Source: Elsinoe ampelina (taxonomy: Eukaryota). From it: DNA of 64,000 nucleotides. Position numbers and translations under genes: made by a program. Every line of letters starts with the position of its first letter. Positions within the stretch are counted from its first letter, which is position 1. Location of the stretch: positions 861,001 to 925,000 of the forward strand of contig ML992502.1 in NCBI GenBank assembly GCA_010093995.1. Reading direction: 5' to 3'. Below the pieces are notes generated by a model. That model did no database searches, was not told where the DNA came from, and saw only the letters and a list, made by a program, of their open reading frames with translations. Positions 12,431-62,540 of the stretch are shown piece by piece.

Positions 12431-13474
12431 CTATCGACCGAAGAAGGAAGACCCGTCGCAAGCAAAACCAGCTGCGCCAAAGTCGACCATCTGGGAAGTG
12501 GAGTTGGAAAGGCCGTGGTCGATTGAGGTCGTGGAAGTGTCAAAGTCGAAGAACGAATCAAAGTCGCCAGTAGTTTGTTCATTTGAGTTGGCGATTGGGT
12601 CCAAAAGGCCAAAAGTATTGTCTTGTAGGTTGTCATGACGCTCAAATGGGTTAAATAGAGGATAGTCCGAGTCCATACCCATGTTTGGGACGTTGACTGA
12701 ACCAAGAGACTGCTGGCCGCTGCGCTCAACCGACACTGCAGGTCGCACAACATTGCTGCAGAATGTTGTGTCGGGTTGAGCGCTGCGAAGAGAGACTCAT
12801 GGGTCAGGGACTCGTGACCGTTGTCTGATGGCATATTGTCTTCCATCTTGATGTAGGGGGTGTTTTCCGGTGATGTGGCTGGTGTACTGCACGAGAGGGA
12901 TGCTCGTGGATCGATGGTTGATGATGGTGAATGAGCTGATGAAGATGAGCCGGTACTAGAGACGAATTAGTGTCTGTGCCCGACAGCAGCGACGCGATGA
13001 AATGTACCTTTGGTTTGAATACCGGCGCTCAAAGAGTTCCTGATCTTCCTCGCTGATCGCCGGTAACGAACCACCAAGCTGCTCTTTACACTTTTCGAGC
13101 TGAGCGGACTGGATGTTGATCATGTGCTGCATCTCCTTCATCTTGGCCAAGAGCTTCTCGTTGGCCACGGCGAGTCCTTCAGCCTCTTGTCGCTTCCGCT
13201 CCCTGGAATTGTGGGCTGCTGCGCGATTGCGCTTGATTCTCTCGATACGACGCTGCTCCTTTTCATCTTCGGTCTTTGCCCTTTTCCGTGGTGGGAGATT
13301 TGTCTTTGGTTCCGGAAGTTCTTGACCCCACGATTTCCGCTTCTTGACTGGCTTTGTGACGCTAAGCGTATGTGTTGGTGGACAGAATAGATTATCCATG
13401 GCGAACATAGGATCCGGCGAAACTGATGAATGTGTCGAATAAGTCATGAGTGATTGTGGTGAAATGTGCTCCAT
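12431..13474 (-). CDS. HAC1: bZIP UPR transcription factor HacA, Ire1-spliced form; the unspliced form reads on to 12184
   Basis: KKRKSWGQELPEPKTNLPPRKRAKTEDEKEQRRIERIKRNRAAAHNSRERKR. Spliceosomal intron 13007-12956. Unspliced frame reads TQHSAAMLCDLQC. Confidence 0.95.
12739..12758 (-). other. HAC1: 20-nt unconventional (Ire1-cleaved) intron of HAC1
   Basis: CTG^CAGCAATGTTGTGCGACCTG^CAGTG. Both sites lie in 7-nt CNG'CAGN loops closed by stems CACAACATT/AATGTTGTG and CGAC/GTCG. Confidence 0.95.
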
Positions 13475-55948: not shown

Positions 55949-56303
55949 GATGCTTTGCGGGAGGGATGGTGGACCAGAGGGGACGGGTCCGAAAAGCACG
56001 GCGAAGGGCACCTTAGCTCGGGCCGTTCAATTTGCAAAGATCCAGTACTGTTATCCCAAGGACACGCATTGACAAGGTTGGATCTTGGTGTAGCACTTGA
56101 GGAAAGGAGAGTTGGGGGATTCCCAAGAACGAAAAATTGCCCGTAAAGTGCCCCGCTCCGCCCCTCACATGCCCACCCCACCGGCTTCAGGGGCAAGATT
56201 CATTCACATGCACAACCAGAAAGGCATACGTTGAGCACTGCATTGTCTGCTGATCTAGAATCTATCCCGTATATACATCAAATCAAATACCCTCGCAGCT
56301 TTT

Positions 56304-57645
56304 CTACCGACCAGGCAAATCCACCTGTCTCTGGATCATCGCCTCCCTACCAGGCCCAGTCCCGATCCACTTGACCGGCACCCCAGTATACTCCTCCACA
56401 AACTCGACATACTTGCGCGCATTCTCGGGGAGATTCGAGTAGCTGTTCACGCCCGTCGTGGTCGACTTCCACCCGGGAAAGGACCTGTAAACCACCTCGA
56501 CCTTCTTCAACGCCGCGATCGTGGCGGGAAAGACGGACGTCTCCTGCCCGTCAACCTTGTACGCCACACCGACTTTGATCTCGTCAAAGTCATCCAGGAT
56601 ATCCAGTTTCGTGAGGTTCCAGCACGTGTAGTGATTGATCAACGCCGAGTACCGCAACAAGACCAAATCCAACCATCCACACCTCCTCTTCCTCCCCGTC
56701 GTGACGCCAACCTCCTTGCCAATCGACTGGAGTTTCTCCCCCGTCGCGTCCTCCAGCTCCGTGGGGAACGGACCCCCTCCGACCCGAGTCTGATAAGCCT
56801 TGACCACGCCAATCACCTCTTTGAGCTTGAACGGACTGATGCCCAGTCCCGTGAACACCCCTCCGATACCAGTGTTACTGCTCGTCACCATAGGGTACGT
56901 CCCCCAATCGATATCCAACATCAACGCATTGGCCCCCTCGACGAGAATGCCCCTCCCGCTCTCCTCCGCGCTCGCGATCAGCGGGACCTGATCCACCACA
57001 AACTCGGCCAATTTGGGTCTCCACTCGTCGAATCGCGCAATCTCCTTCTCGACGTCGTACTGCAGCAAGTCGCCGTAGCGCTTCTTGTACGCCCCCGCCA
57101 TGGCGCGCAGTCGTGCGTCCATCCCGGCTTTGTCGAATACCTCACCGACCCTGACCCCGCTCCGTCCATGCTTGGTCTGGTAGCTTGGCCCGATGCCTTT
57201 CCTTGTGGTCCCGACTTTCGCATCCCCGAGCTCCACCTCCTCTAGTCCATCAACCAGCTGGTGCAGCTCGAACAACACCTGCGCGCGGTCGGAGATGAAG
57301 ATGCGCTCTTTCGTGTCCAGGCCATGTTTGTTCAATTGCTCGAGCTCGTAGAAGAACTGCGGGAGGGAGACGACGCAGGCGGACCCGATGAGGTTGATGC
57401 TGGTGGGGTTGATGAGGCCTGAGGGCAGGATGTGGAAGTCGTAGGTGGTCTTGTTGACGACGATGGTGTGGCCTGCGTTGTGGCCGCCGGCGGAGCGGCA
57501 GATGAGGGGGAAGCGGTGGGAGAGGATGTCGACGAGTTTGCCTTTGCCTACGGGAGAAGAGGGGTTAGTAAGAAGGAGGGGAGAGGGGAGAGGTGTTGGG
57601 GGTACCTTCGTCGCCGAACTGCGAACCGAGGACGACGGTCGTCAT
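56304..57645 (-). CDS. ADE12: Adenylosuccinate synthetase
   Basis: [11 protein letters not shown] across intron 57605-57548. [31 protein letters not shown]. Confidence 0.97.
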
Positions 57646-58305
57646 GGTGGGGGTTTAGGAGGGGTGACTTGTTGGCAGAAGGTTCAATTGGTGTTTGTGA
57701 CCATCAATTGATGGCTAGGTCAAGGAGAGAGTGTGGTAGGAATCGTTTGCGACGCGCCAAAAGCGACGTAGGAACCAACACACGAAAGCACGAGGTTGAA
57801 AATTTATCGAGGTTGTGACTGGTTCGCGGCGGGGAAATTCAAAGTCTTGTGAGGGGAATGCGGAAACGTTTGCTTCTGAGAGAGATTCTCGGGTAAAATA
57901 GATACATCGAGGATAAGAGGCAAGGAAATAGAATACGCGGTACTACTATCATATGAAGCGTTCTAGTCAGTACTAGTGCATAGCCCTCACTTCCTCTGTA
58001 AAGTAAACTAAAGAAGATTACGCTATTTGGGAAATCTGCTGCGATTTATTATAGAATTGCTCTTCTACTACCTACTACAAAGGTTTCTGCTATCTAAATG
58101 TACATTGTAACTTACATGAACCGTTACAGTCAGAGATGCAATGTATATCAAGACATAGTTGTATGATGATTGCTATAGAAGACTGTCCTGAGGTTGGATA
58201 GCCCCACGTCACATCAGTCCTGCATTTGCCGGGCCTCCACTCAAGTCGTCTTGTAACGTTCCAGGGTAACAATATGTAAGTTATCGCCTTCCTCAATTAA
58301 GAGTT

Positions 58306-58522
58306 ACCGCCGTGGCACGTAAGTGAATCGTTGTGAAGTTTCTCCTCGATTTAAGGTTGACTCTTTTGTAGAATTGGCTAGCGCGTGAGACTTTTATGAA
58401 CCAACCAAATGTCTTTAAAACACTTGTATTGGAAGGAAATCTCAAGGGTATGATTATCCTCTTCTTCTCCTTCACATAACTGATTGTTTAAAAAGATGAG
58501 GGTTCGAGCCCCTCCGGTGGTG
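58306..58522 (+). tRNA. tRNA-Lys(UUU) in four exons (58306-58318, 58372-58396, 58439-58447, 58496-58522)
   Basis: The joined exons give a 74-nt cloverleaf: acceptor ACCGCCG/CGGTGGT, D stem GCAC/GCGC with loop AATTGGCTA, anticodon stem TGAGA/TCTCA with loop CT-TTT-AA, variable AGGAT, T stem GAGGG/CCCTC with loop TTCGAGC. Confidence 0.85.
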
Positions 58523-58533
58523 TTATCGATTTC

Positions 58534-58544
58534 TTTTGTTTTTT
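58534..58544 (+). terminator. Pol III oligo-T terminator
   Basis: TTTTGTTTTTT begins 12 nt downstream of the tRNA discriminator base. Confidence 0.7.
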
Positions 58545-59919
58545 GGTGAAATGATTCAAGTTTTGACGTCCTCGTTACCTCCAGGCGATAGATTCGTTAA
58601 GGAGTCTTCAACGCATCGAAGATCTTGATCTGAATATCCTGGATGGAGCACTTGCGGTCTCTGAGCTCCCCCCTACTGCCTTGAAGCAATCGCTTTTTAA
58701 ACGAGTGCTGCTGAATTACACGGTCGGATACTGGTCTCTGCCGAATCTAGCGCCTTAACTTCGAACTCAAGCTTGTTGATTGTCGTCTCCATGGAAGGTT
58801 AATAGCAGCATGTCGATTGAGATTCGACAGATTCCGAAATCACCAATTCTCAGAACAACTTCTGTGCGTGTAATGAAGATCTGCAGTCATCCATCGAGAC
58901 TTTGAGCACCCTCAGCTCAGTGGGACGGCAAGGACATCTTCAGCGGCCTTGGCGGTAATTGGCGAGGTATGATTGCTACACCATCACGTGGTACAACCAT
59001 CTTCCTGCCTTCTTGATTGGGTTCGAAGCAGTCTCTATTCAAGCCTTTCCTGTGCCTTAGTACGACCGAATATCAGATCGGGATAGAGCGTTCGGCGAGC
59101 GTTTCCAGCCTTGTCGTCACTCGGGGGATCCACGACAGTCTATGGAATCGCAACGTCGTCTGGCTCGCCATTCGGAGTGTCCTCTCACCTCTTCAATGCC
59201 AATCGTAGCCGAAGATGGACTTTCCAGAACCACCCATTTCCCCGAGAAGTGCGGTGGTTGAATTTTCGCCATCAAAGAACGTGCCGAAGTTGAACTCCCT
59301 ACTTCCAAGACGCAAGACGAGGCGGGTAACTCATCGCGGTGGTACTGGCGGCGTACCAAGACGAAGATTATGAGCATCTTCTGCTCAGCTTTGGAGCACT
59401 GCCGGACCGTCACCTCTACAAAATCCCTCGCAGCTTCTAGAGCCTGAAATACGTCAGTAAGCCGACTCAGATTGCAAGAGATACATTTTGCTGACCTGGA
59501 CCAAGCCTTTCGCGAAATTCATGATCTTCCCCAAATCCTCTCTCTGCAGAGTGATCTAGTGCCAGTCTCTGTACACAGACTCGATCCAATGTGTGAACGT
59601 GTAACCTGCACTCCTGACTTACACAAAGACTGGAGCCTGGAAAGCATGAGTGCCGGCTTCTGACGACTCTACTCGAGCTGGAAGGACCAATTGGTCTGCC
59701 AGGTCGACCCGGTTCCAACAAGTCAGTGAGCTCCAAATGTCACGTCCTATGAGAGAATAATGCTGTACATTGTGACGATTCGCCATCTGCGCCTATTCTA
59801 CCCGGTTTCCCAAATCCCATGTTCGCTGTTGGAAATGCATGCTCCAATGTGTGCACTAGCAAATGAGCTACTAGATCTCTGCGATTACTAGATAAATCGT
59901 CCATCACGTCAGGTCTTGC

Positions 59920-62540
59920 TCATTGAGCTACGCTCTTTCCACCGTCCTGCGTTGGGAGAACGTGGACATCTTTGATCGCCTTGTCGTCTTCCTTGATTGC
60001 ACCGTTATGGTTACTGGGCTCGAGGTCGTCGAATACTGGCCCACTGCTGGAGCTCCCTCCACTGTCGCCCCTCTCGCGAGTTTCGACGTTACCATGGACT
60101 TTTGCATCGTCGGGCTTGAGGTGTGTATCGTTCGTGGAAGGCGTCGTTGTTGAGACCGCATTCTCATTGTGCTCGGCTTGGTGCTCAGCCTTCTCTTCCT
60201 CGCCGATCATAGCTGCGAGACTGCGAAAGTTGAACATCGATTCGGTAGCCGTACCTCCAGATGTAGGCGGTGTTCCCGACTTTGCATCGCTGGTCCCTGG
60301 CATGTCCAATCCGCTAGCGGCTGGGGAAACGCCTAGTGCCGACTCATTTCTGTAGCTACCAGGAGCTGAGTCGAGGACTGAAGAAGCCACAGAAGACGCT
60401 CCGGAGAACTGACGATGATGACCTCTCAATCCACCTTCCTTGGGCACCGGCAATGATATGGGTTGGGAGGGCTGGGACAGGTTCGCGCGGCTTTCTTCTA
60501 GATGTCGCTGGGCGCTTTCCGCTGTCCTCACGTCGGTCTTGCTACTCTCCCTATTGAGCGTTGATGTAGGCTCATCGAGTGGGTTAAAACCCATGATCCC
60601 GGTCGCAGGTGCTTTGCCCTTGCCTGGAGGAAGCGGACTTGCTGTTCCAGAAGTATATCCAAGATTACTTGTCGATCGTGTCATAGACGCTGTCGCCCAA
60701 GTCGATGTGCTCTGGTTGGCACTTGTAGCGTACAGACTTCCTGCCTTTTCTGCCTTCTTCGCTGCCTTATCAGCCTTTTTCTGTGCTTTGGCTTCTTCTT
60801 TTGCACGCTTTTTGGCATCTTTGGCTGCCTCCTTTTCTTCCTTGCGCTTACGTTCTTCTTCCGCCGCTAGTGACAATCGGATGGCCTCCATCATCATGAG
60901 ATCTTCCAGGTCGTCAACTCTGTTCCGACGACCAAGAGGTCTCTGTGGTCCTTCGCTGTCACTCTGATTTGCGCCTCCATCGGGCCTGCCCAGGAATGCG
61001 CTTAGACTGACCCCCTCAGGAATGCCAGGTTGAGGGCCGCCCGACGAGCCTTCGCCAAAGAGTCTGCGCCTGCGACCGAATGCTCTCAAATCGATATTCT
61101 GAGTGTTGCCCAACACGTATGCAGCATTATGTAAAGCTGTGGCCGCTGCAGATCTTCGCAAGGCATGTGCACGAGCGTCTGCTAGCTTTTTGGCCCAATC
61201 TGGTCGTACCCTGTCTGTTGTAACCACTGTCTTATCGGTGGCTGATAGAGAAGTTGTTCTTCGTCTTGAACCCATTGATCCGAGCGACGTGGAGGACGAC
61301 ATGGCTGAAGCGGCGGATGCCAACGGATGCGATCCACCAGCATAAGCCAGTCCTCGCCTGAAAGGAGGAGGTTCGTACGTGACGCCAAATTCAGGAGTGG
61401 CGCAATAAGGACAAGCCGAAGGTTCCGACACCAGCAGTCCTTCCTCTTCCGGCTTTGGTTCTGGATTTGGGTTGCTGGGATCTTCATGATGCTCGGGTGG
61501 ATGTGGATCTGGTCGCTTGATCTGAACAAAGCACTCGGAACAGATTGGCTGATCGCAACATCGTGTTCTGTTCAAGTATGGCGGATAGTAGAGAAAGCAG
61601 ATAGGACATTCCTGAGCGTCCTTGTACAGATATGCTTCCAGCGGCTGACCATTGACATTTGGATCTCGTGGTAATTGAATTTCCTGTGGTGTCATTTGGA
61701 CATTCGAGTTTGAGCGAGAAGCTGACGTGAGAGATGCGAGAGTCTTTGCTCTTCCCCGAAACAGATTCATTCCACCAGAAGGAGGCGATGTGGGTGATGC
61801 AGGACTGGACGTGGAAAAGGCTGGATGTGATGCAGAAAGGTTGGTAGAAATGTCAGACTGGTTAGAGATGGATCTGGAGGTGATTGGTATGGTCAATTTG
61901 TTGACTTCGGCTTCGGTAGGTCCGGTCTCTGCATTTGTCGTCTCTGAAGGTGTACGTTGTAGCTCTGGGGGTATTTCATCTGCGGCGGGGATTGGGAGGC
62001 CTCTCGCCGCAGCGATGAGCTGATATTCTGTCCATGAGTCTTTGTGATCGTTTAATCCTCTCCAGAAAGGAGCCAGTCGTCGTTCAACCTATACTTTATG
62101 AGACACAATCCTGCCTGATAAATGAGCCTACTCACTTGGAGTTGTCTGACTATCGCTTTACTGAAATCTTCCGTGCCAGTATATGTACCCAACGTCACGA
62201 GATATCCGCCATCGACATGCTCCTCCTTCAGACTCCGCTCCCTGTCCTTTTCCCTAGCTATGCGCTCTTTCTCCAACCTCCTAGCTTCCCTCTCTTGTTT
62301 TGTCTCTCGAGGCCGATCTTCCCTGGTGATGTCCCGCTCACTCAGACCCAGCGAGTTGAGAAAGTGAAGGTCGGGCCTACTGTTACTCCTGCCGACTCTT
62401 GACGGTGTACTGCCAGAGGTATATCGAAATACGGCCGAAGGTGTTATTGTATCGATTGGCTCTGACGTGCTCACATTTCGAAGGCTACCCGGCCTGGACC
62501 GCTGCTGGCCTCTTGACTCTTTGGTGGAGCTGTTGCCCAT
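59920..62540 (-). CDS. SIP5: Snf1-interacting protein Sip5 (RING-like)
   Basis: MGNSSTK myristoylation-type start, [53 protein letters not shown]. Intron 62135-62089. Confidence 0.93.

Follow-up and report, generated by a model that had tools for sequence, protein, structure and literature searches.

In the textbook picture, introns of eukaryotic tRNAs lie at position 37/38, where a protein endonuclease excises them. The locus described here raises the question of how a tRNA gene could be transcribed and matured when it also carries insertions that look like mRNA introns, one of which splits its internal A box. Does the intron itself rebuild the box, as an earlier note made from the sequence had proposed, or must the start of transcription be set elsewhere, and by which polymerase? 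The window, by which we mean the whole stretch of 64,000 nucleotides that was analysed, contains at 58306-58522 on the plus strand a 217-nt tRNA-Lys(UUU) gene with four exon pieces and three interruptions, arranged as follows.

58306-58318, plus strand: exon 1, with the 7-nt 5′ acceptor strand, U8, G9 and the 5′ D-stem strand; its last 6 nt, TGGCAC (58313-58318), are the 5′ half of the A box

58319-58371, plus strand: insertion 1, 53 nt at tRNA position 13/14, GT..AG, spliceosomal-type

58366-58377, plus strand: the earlier note's 'surrogate A box', made of the last 6 nt of insertion 1 and the first 6 nt of exon 2

58372-58396, plus strand: exon 2, 25 nt, with the D loop, the 3′ D-stem strand, the 5′ anticodon-stem strand and the loop with anticodon TTT; the 3′ half of the A box, AATTGG, lies at 58372-58377

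58397-58438, plus strand: canonical tRNA intron, 42 nt at position 37/38, with ends that are not GT..AG

58439-58447, plus strand: exon 3, 9 nt, with A38, the 3′ anticodon-stem strand and the first three bases of the variable loop

58448-58495, plus strand: insertion 2, third of the interruptions, spliceosomal-type and GT..AG, 48 nt at position 46/47

58496-58522, plus strand: exon 4, which completes the variable loop and continues with the T arm, where the B box is intact, then with the 3′ acceptor strand and discriminator G

58501-58511, plus strand: the B box GGTTCGAGCCC, intact, in exon 4

58534-58537 and 58539-58544, plus strand: runs of four and six T, 11 and 16 nt past the mature 3′ end, resembling a terminator for RNA polymerase III (Pol III)

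Standard tools pass over this gene. ARAGORN reports no tRNA gene on the whole window, and a search with Rfam yields no tRNA anywhere in the window at the gathering threshold, nor any at E ≤ 10 within 58000-58800. When a script removed 58319-58371, 58397-58438 and 58448-58495, the four exons joined into 74 nt that ARAGORN calls tRNA-Lys(ttt). The acceptor stem of the joined 74-mer pairs at 7 of 7 positions (the exon 1 strand with 58515-58521), the anticodon and T stems each at 5 of 5, and the D stem at 3 of 4. The D-stem mismatch, A12:C23, also occurs in all 59 ordinary relatives described below; we considered it as a defect of the gene and rejected that idea because it is the family norm. The mature sequence is identical to that of its nearest ordinary relative at 65 of 74 positions, and the 9 differences fall mostly in the acceptor stem, which is nonetheless fully paired. 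On these grounds 58306-58522 is a real nuclear tRNA-Lys(UUU) gene, of an ascomycete-like fungus, and probably a functional one.

Its 37/38 intron should be removed by the tRNA splicing endonuclease and ligase. The two insertions, of 53 and 48 nt, have the size and layout of short fungal mRNA introns. Insertion 1 begins with GTAAGT, carries TTGAC with its branch A 11 nt from the 3′ end and closes with TAG, and its boundaries can be placed in only one way. Insertion 2, with GTATGA, CTGAT (branch A 12 nt from the 3′ end) and AAG, is the weaker of the two, both in its donor and in an acceptor that is AAG rather than YAG; it admits two equivalent placements, one of them GT..AG.

Metagenome contigs were scanned for relatives with the 25-mer of exon 2, with Y or R allowed at three positions. 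All 77 of the loci retrieved are tRNA-Lys(UUU)-type genes. When introns are allowed, ARAGORN recovers 59 as ordinary tRNA genes that either lack an intron or have a single canonical one (54 called Lys, 3 'Stop', 1 undetermined and 1 Lys minus its short intron), and these ordinary relatives carry between 0 and 51 nt at position 37/38. The remaining 18 escape ARAGORN, and every one of the 18 bears GT..AG insertions at non-canonical positions, making nine further sites, distributed as follows.

Position 7/8: L002, L071 and L040

Position 66/67: L040 only

Position 12/13: L007, L022, L056 and L074

Position 53/54: L014, L019, L028 and L042

Position 54/55: L051 and L076

Position 55/56: L045, and also L065, where the insertion lies between T55 and C56 (the script's table numbered it 53/54 owing to the short variable loop)

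Position 57/58: L055

Position 58/59: L054 and L062

Together with the window's two, these amount to 14 distinct insertion sequences and 11 insertion events, and the A or B box is cut at 9 of the 11 insertion sites. None of the 77 loci has an insertion at either of the window gene's sites, 13/14 and 46/47. One relative, L065, appears degenerate, with C at position 8, G at position 58 and a variable loop of 3 nt. The junctions used here were set explicitly. Brute-force removal of all GT..AG segments followed by ARAGORN had yielded Lys(ttt) for 12 of 19 sequences, with spurious alternatives behind some of these calls, and it had missed the L007 family, L051/L076 and L065. Full-text literature searches, whose coverage takes in few subscription journals, returned no description of spliceosomal introns in tRNA genes, and genes of this kind apparently form an undescribed class, that of tRNA genes with mRNA-type introns.

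The splice signals of the window extend to the whole set. All 14 distinct non-canonical insertions are GT..AG and measure 47-61 nt, and in each of them the A of a branch-like pentamer stands 9-12 nt before the 3′ end. As a control, GT..AG could be read in none of the 36 distinct canonical 37/38 introns of the same loci, with equivalent boundary placements permitted. Judged by these signals, the two insertions in the window would be U2-type GT..AG introns, removable only by the spliceosome. An origin of the insertions as introner-like repeats was rejected, since each matches only itself and its orthologs when compared with the window and all loci.

Three pairs of diverged orthologs among the relatives, for which we give matching positions, bear on whether such genes are maintained.

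L014/L042: mature sequence 74/74, intron 43/52, upstream flank 171/196, downstream flank 165/195

L007/L074: mature sequence 74/74, intron 45/49, flanks 148/177 and 143/184

L002/L040: mature sequence 74/74, intron 50/54, canonical intron 18/21

Given how far the flanks of L014/L042 have diverged (about 14%), the probability that 74 exon positions stay unchanged by chance is about 1e-5. In the ortholog pairs, donor, branch and acceptor motifs persist through the changes within the introns. Moreover, the 58-nt GT..AG intron at 66/67, in the 3′ acceptor strand, is present in L040 (576-633) and precisely missing from L002 and L071, which have the same mature sequence. By this comparison the intron-bearing tRNA-Lys genes of the relatives are under purifying selection. 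The 77 metagenome loci include no ortholog of the window gene itself, and as its insertion sites have no counterpart there, selection on it is argued by analogy with these relatives.

How, then, could such a gene be started? The A box is split just as the earlier note described, its halves parted by 53 nt that run from GTAAGT to TAG. The break falls after position 13. In all 59 ordinary relatives the box is contiguous and its 12-mer reads TGGCACAATTGG, which is identical to the spliced A-box 12-mer of the window; the two half-boxes are therefore exactly the A box of the family. The earlier note had also pointed out that 58366-58377 reads TTGTAGAATTGG and differs from TRGYNNARNNGG at position 2 only, and this too is an accurate account of the letters. 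What we could not sustain is its conclusion that the end of the intron rebuilds the box, because the match is at chance level and the equivalent stretch in the other family with a D-arm intron has two mismatches. Six of the 12 letters come from exon 2, and the Y-N-N of the pattern is supplied automatically by any acceptor of the YAG type. The stretch does retain T8, G10, Y11, A14, R15, G18 and G19. With at most one mismatch, however, TRGYNN fits 1089 of the 3452 NNNYAG hexamers in the window (32%) and 1254 of the 8719 NNNNAG hexamers (14%). Among intron-like segments it fits 4 of 34 (12%), and at the same tolerance the full 12-mer pattern has 390 matches in the window when both strands are counted. 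In L007, L022, L056 and L074, the only other D-arm-intron family found, the two mismatches fall on the conserved G10 and Y11.

As a selected element, then, the surrogate box offers a match that is not better than chance and that the L007 family does not share. It looks like an accidental by-product of a T-rich tract and a YAG acceptor standing before the true 3′ half of the A box. If used, it would be harmful. The earlier note had reasoned that a start directed by it would lie inside intron 1, and indeed a start measured from 58366-58377 falls within the insertion and loses exon 1. Hence, if the gene is functional, something other than a contiguous A box must position its start. To that extent the note's view of start selection holds, and both the split box and the relatives agree with it; its further step, that upstream elements or Pol II must take over, is a matter of likelihood that we weigh below.

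Several other features bear on the choice of polymerase. The B box GGTTCGAGCCC and the T6 run are intact, and the longest T run across the 217 nt of the gene is 4, all as the earlier note had stated. The pattern GGTTCRANYCC has one match in the window, at 58501-58511, a uniqueness that means little when 0.61 matches are expected per window and 46 of 100 shuffles contain at least one. Among the relatives, L002, L071 and L040 have an intact A box 54 nt downstream of a 7-nt first exon, and the B box is cut in six families (six T-loop sites). Every one of the 13 distinct intron-bearing genes has a run of at least four T no more than 31 nt downstream of its 3′ end. Such a run lies within 35 nt in 43 of 44 distinct ordinary genes (duplicates and loci with less than 60 nt of downstream flank excluded), as against 9.6% of random positions in the loci. 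These T runs are retained in diverged orthologs.

Some of the genes with a cut B box also have B-box-like sequence at the junction or in the intron. In L014/L042 the acceptor AG automatically restores the B box AGTTCGAGCCC, the AGTTCGAG type of most ordinary relatives. Among 3000 shuffles, 7 equal the perfect B box that lies just within the L045 intron. The L065 intron holds a B box with one mismatch, a weaker case that 122 of 3000 shuffles equal. The remnants in L051 (3 mismatches), L054 (2) and L055 (2) fit poorly with a route driven by TFIIIC. A 15-nt B-box-like sequence, TCACGGTTCAATCGT, is identical in L065 (571-585, in the T-loop intron) and in L055 (452-466, about 35-50 nt upstream of the gene; BLAST E = 0.004). 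Each of these two loci has its own B box cut by an intron, and TCACGGTTCAATCGT could be a relocated TFIIIC site in both.

Upstream of the loci, a TATA-like motif occurs at -60 to -15 in 25 of 45 distinct ordinary genes, as against 10% of 426 control windows, and in 8 of 15 distinct intron-bearing sequences. This enrichment suggests TATA-assisted Pol III initiation in the group, a mode of initiation that is cited for S. pombe and plants in the portion of PMC3978253 available to us. The window gene has no TATA-like motif at -60 to -15, which counts against an upstream-set start. Depletion of T runs in the insertions was considered as a signature of Pol III and rejected: their 740 nt contain no run of at least five T, but the same is true of 347 of 2000 shuffles; the flank rate predicts 0.8, and such a run occurs in 1 of 11 intron-like control segments. 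Taken together, the terminators, the conservation of the T runs, the intronic B boxes and the precedent of the U6 small nuclear RNA lean towards Pol III with a start set upstream.

We also looked at RNA from the neighbourhood. Contigs of four sequencing runs (X3, X4, X5 and X6) were placed on 56200-60400. These are RNA-derived in practice, and all four runs join across the intron of the adenylosuccinate synthetase gene (about 57547-57604, CT..AC ends). The features that matter here are the following.

56304-57641, minus strand: adenylosuccinate synthetase, assigned to its Pfam family through a protein atlas

58174-59442, minus strand: antisense stretch covered by one X3 contig, gapless over the whole tRNA locus and resuming at 59495

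59920-62088, minus strand: long open reading frame, the other flanking gene, whose product may resemble SIP5-type proteins

The X3 contig is joined over 59443-59494 with CT..AC ends and thus reflects a spliced minus-strand transcript antisense to the tRNA gene. An X5 contig starts at 58440 and is preceded by nine non-templated T, the poly(A) tail of a minus-strand RNA. The best open reading frame of the spliced antisense RNA (58174-59740, minus strand) has only 117 amino acids, and the transcript might code for no protein at all or might be a long extension of a 3′ end. The contigs contain no joint at 58318/58372 or 58447/58496; those of X4, X5 and X6 cover the locus in part, and such contigs lose rare or small RNAs.

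Three smaller observations belong with this survey. At 58496, the first base of exon 4 in the variable loop, a single X5 contig (depth 2.4) has T where the window has A, and T is the base of most relatives at that position. A segment of 56 nt at 59653-59708 is matched with 6 differences by far more abundant X3 contigs (depth 587) and by an X4 contig, all of which diverge on both sides of it; the segment is common to another, highly expressed transcript. Elsewhere in the window, 12718-12787 on the minus strand matches Rfam family RF04247, the non-canonical HAC1/XBP1-type bZIP intron; the score of 58.3 bits exceeds the gathering threshold of 41, and the match marks a HAC1-like gene and a genome that is eukaryotic and fungus-like.

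On balance, and by our reading of the sequence, we incline to the view that this is a real tRNA gene with two spliceosomal introns and a surrogate box that is there by chance, transcribed by Pol III from an upstream-set start and then processed by both splicing systems. TFIIIC would occupy the intact B box, and upstream sequence together with the remaining half-box, rather than the surrogate, would place TFIIIB and the start upstream of exon 1. Pol III would terminate at T4/T6, and the resulting transcript of about 240 nt would be spliced twice by the spliceosome, like that of fungal U6. Only after this splicing would the cloverleaf form that RNase P, RNase Z and the tRNA endonuclease act on. 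Could the surrogate box serve this route after all, as a selected, working TFIIIC site with the start still set upstream? It keeps all seven of the letters listed above, and introns do supply a B box in L045 and L065, while in L014/L042 the acceptor AG restores one. Even so, with chance matches at 12-32%, mismatches at both G10 and Y11 in the L007 family and an A box 60 nt into the gene that would direct starts lacking exon 1, we regard a selected surrogate as quite improbable. A serious rival, though one that we hold to be somewhat unlikely, is that Pol II makes a short non-coding host RNA on the plus strand, which is spliced co-transcriptionally and from which RNase P and RNase Z release the tRNA, the boxes then being irrelevant as a promoter. 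Spliceosome recruitment is normally coupled to Pol II; Pol II transcription crosses the region, on the minus strand at least; the boxes are cut or displaced at 7/8, 12/13, 13/14 and the six T-loop sites; and three T-loop families are left with only a B box of 2-3 mismatches. Yet a Pol II gene would have no need of the T runs conserved within 31 nt in all 13 distinct intron-bearing genes, the B-box-like sequence within the introns of L045 and L065 exceeds chance, and the spacing between the TATA-like motifs and exon 1 is that of ordinary tRNA genes.

A different doubt concerns whether the window copy works at all, since it might be a dead or dying gene in a genome where other Lys(UUU) genes do the work. 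The absence of an ortholog among the 77 metagenome loci, the identity of only 65/74 to the nearest ordinary relative, the weak signals of insertion 2, the apparent degeneration of the relative L065 and the end of the X5 antisense transcript within the gene would all agree with decay. We nevertheless judge decay unlikely, because the 9 differences lie mainly in an acceptor stem that keeps its 7/7 pairing, the splice signals, B box and terminator are all intact, and the gene has no structural defect apart from the family-wide A12:C23 and shares its A-box 12-mer with 59 of 59 ordinary relatives. The extra insertions might, finally, be bulge-helix-bulge introns cut by the tRNA endonuclease, and the portion of PMC3978253 available to us does describe non-canonical tRNA introns of that kind in some eukaryotes. 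We give this almost no credence. GT..AG ends with a branch motif 9-12 nt from the end mark 14 of 14 insertions and none of the 36 canonical introns, and lengths of 47-61 nt are those of fungal mRNA introns. As a weak test, the minimum-energy fold of unspliced 58306-58522 places neither extra insertion in a bulge-helix-bulge, which would have both junctions in 3-nt bulges flanking a 4-bp helix, and its stability does not exceed that of shuffles (z = -1.14).

Returning to the Pol III reading with two splicing systems, we think it reasonably probable that its broader consequence also holds: that nuclear tRNA genes of a fungal, probably ascomycete, group carry spliceosomal introns, even within the A and B boxes; that a Pol III transcript needs both the spliceosome and the tRNA endonuclease; that the internal promoter is partly dispensable or has been relocated into introns or upstream DNA; and that gene finders miss about a quarter of the family. 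If so, two splicing systems would be linked on one product of 74 nt. These genes would be a natural experiment on the extent to which Pol III needs its internal promoter, and a natural test, besides U6, of the spliceosome on uncapped Pol III transcripts. With 18 of 77 loci and the window gene invisible to ARAGORN, counts of fungal tRNA genes and analyses of codon adaptation would be biased. The ortholog pairs, and the presence or absence of an intron in L040 versus L002, would provide material for dating the gain and loss of introns in a non-coding gene.

Comparison with known systems helps to place the window gene. With the ordinary tRNA-Lys(UUU) genes (59 of the 77 loci) it shares the mature family, the anticodon, the position of the 37/38 intron, the B box and the T-run terminator, but it differs from them in its two extra mRNA-type introns, its split A box and its escape from both ARAGORN and Rfam. 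According to the sections of the tRNAscan-SE 2.0 paper that we could draw on, that program seeks non-canonical introns only in archaea, as bulge-helix-bulge motifs, and those sections contain no word beginning with 'spliceosom' (PMC8450103). The disrupted tRNA genes of Cyanidioschyzon merolae, nucleomorphs and archaea, with multiple introns or permuted order, resemble the window gene in that their A and B boxes are interrupted or misplaced. Their interruptions are substrates of the endonuclease that recognizes bulge-helix-bulge motifs, whereas those of the window have GT..AG ends and a branch motif. For permuted algal tRNA genes, the accessible part of PMC3978253 describes upstream TATA-like control where the boxes are unusable. 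Ascomycete rDNA carries spliceosomal introns (Bhattacharya et al. 2000, as cited in the part of PMC5855946 that we could draw on) and is alike in having introns of spliceosomal type in a gene that Pol II does not transcribe, but it is a Pol I gene and lacks the problem of an internal promoter.

The fungal U6 genes offer a further parallel. The excerpts of PMC5855946 available to us describe mRNA-type introns in these genes, up to four per gene, with canonical 5′ splice, branch and 3′ splice sites. The introns are otherwise unconserved and often lineage-specific, and the spliceosome removes that of S. pombe U6. The title of a 1990 paper cited there reports a match to the B box inside Schizosaccharomyces U6 introns. 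Among non-coding genes with spliceosomal introns, the same excerpts list U6, U1, U2, U5 and rRNA, a list in which tRNA does not appear. Both U6 and the window gene are thus small Pol III RNA genes with mRNA-type introns, although for the window gene Pol III is only the favoured polymerase. The tRNA differs from U6 in not being a component of the spliceosome, and an origin of its introns by reverse splicing at the active site, as for U6, is not obviously applicable. It differs as well in its 37/38 intron, for which a second and unrelated splicing system is needed.
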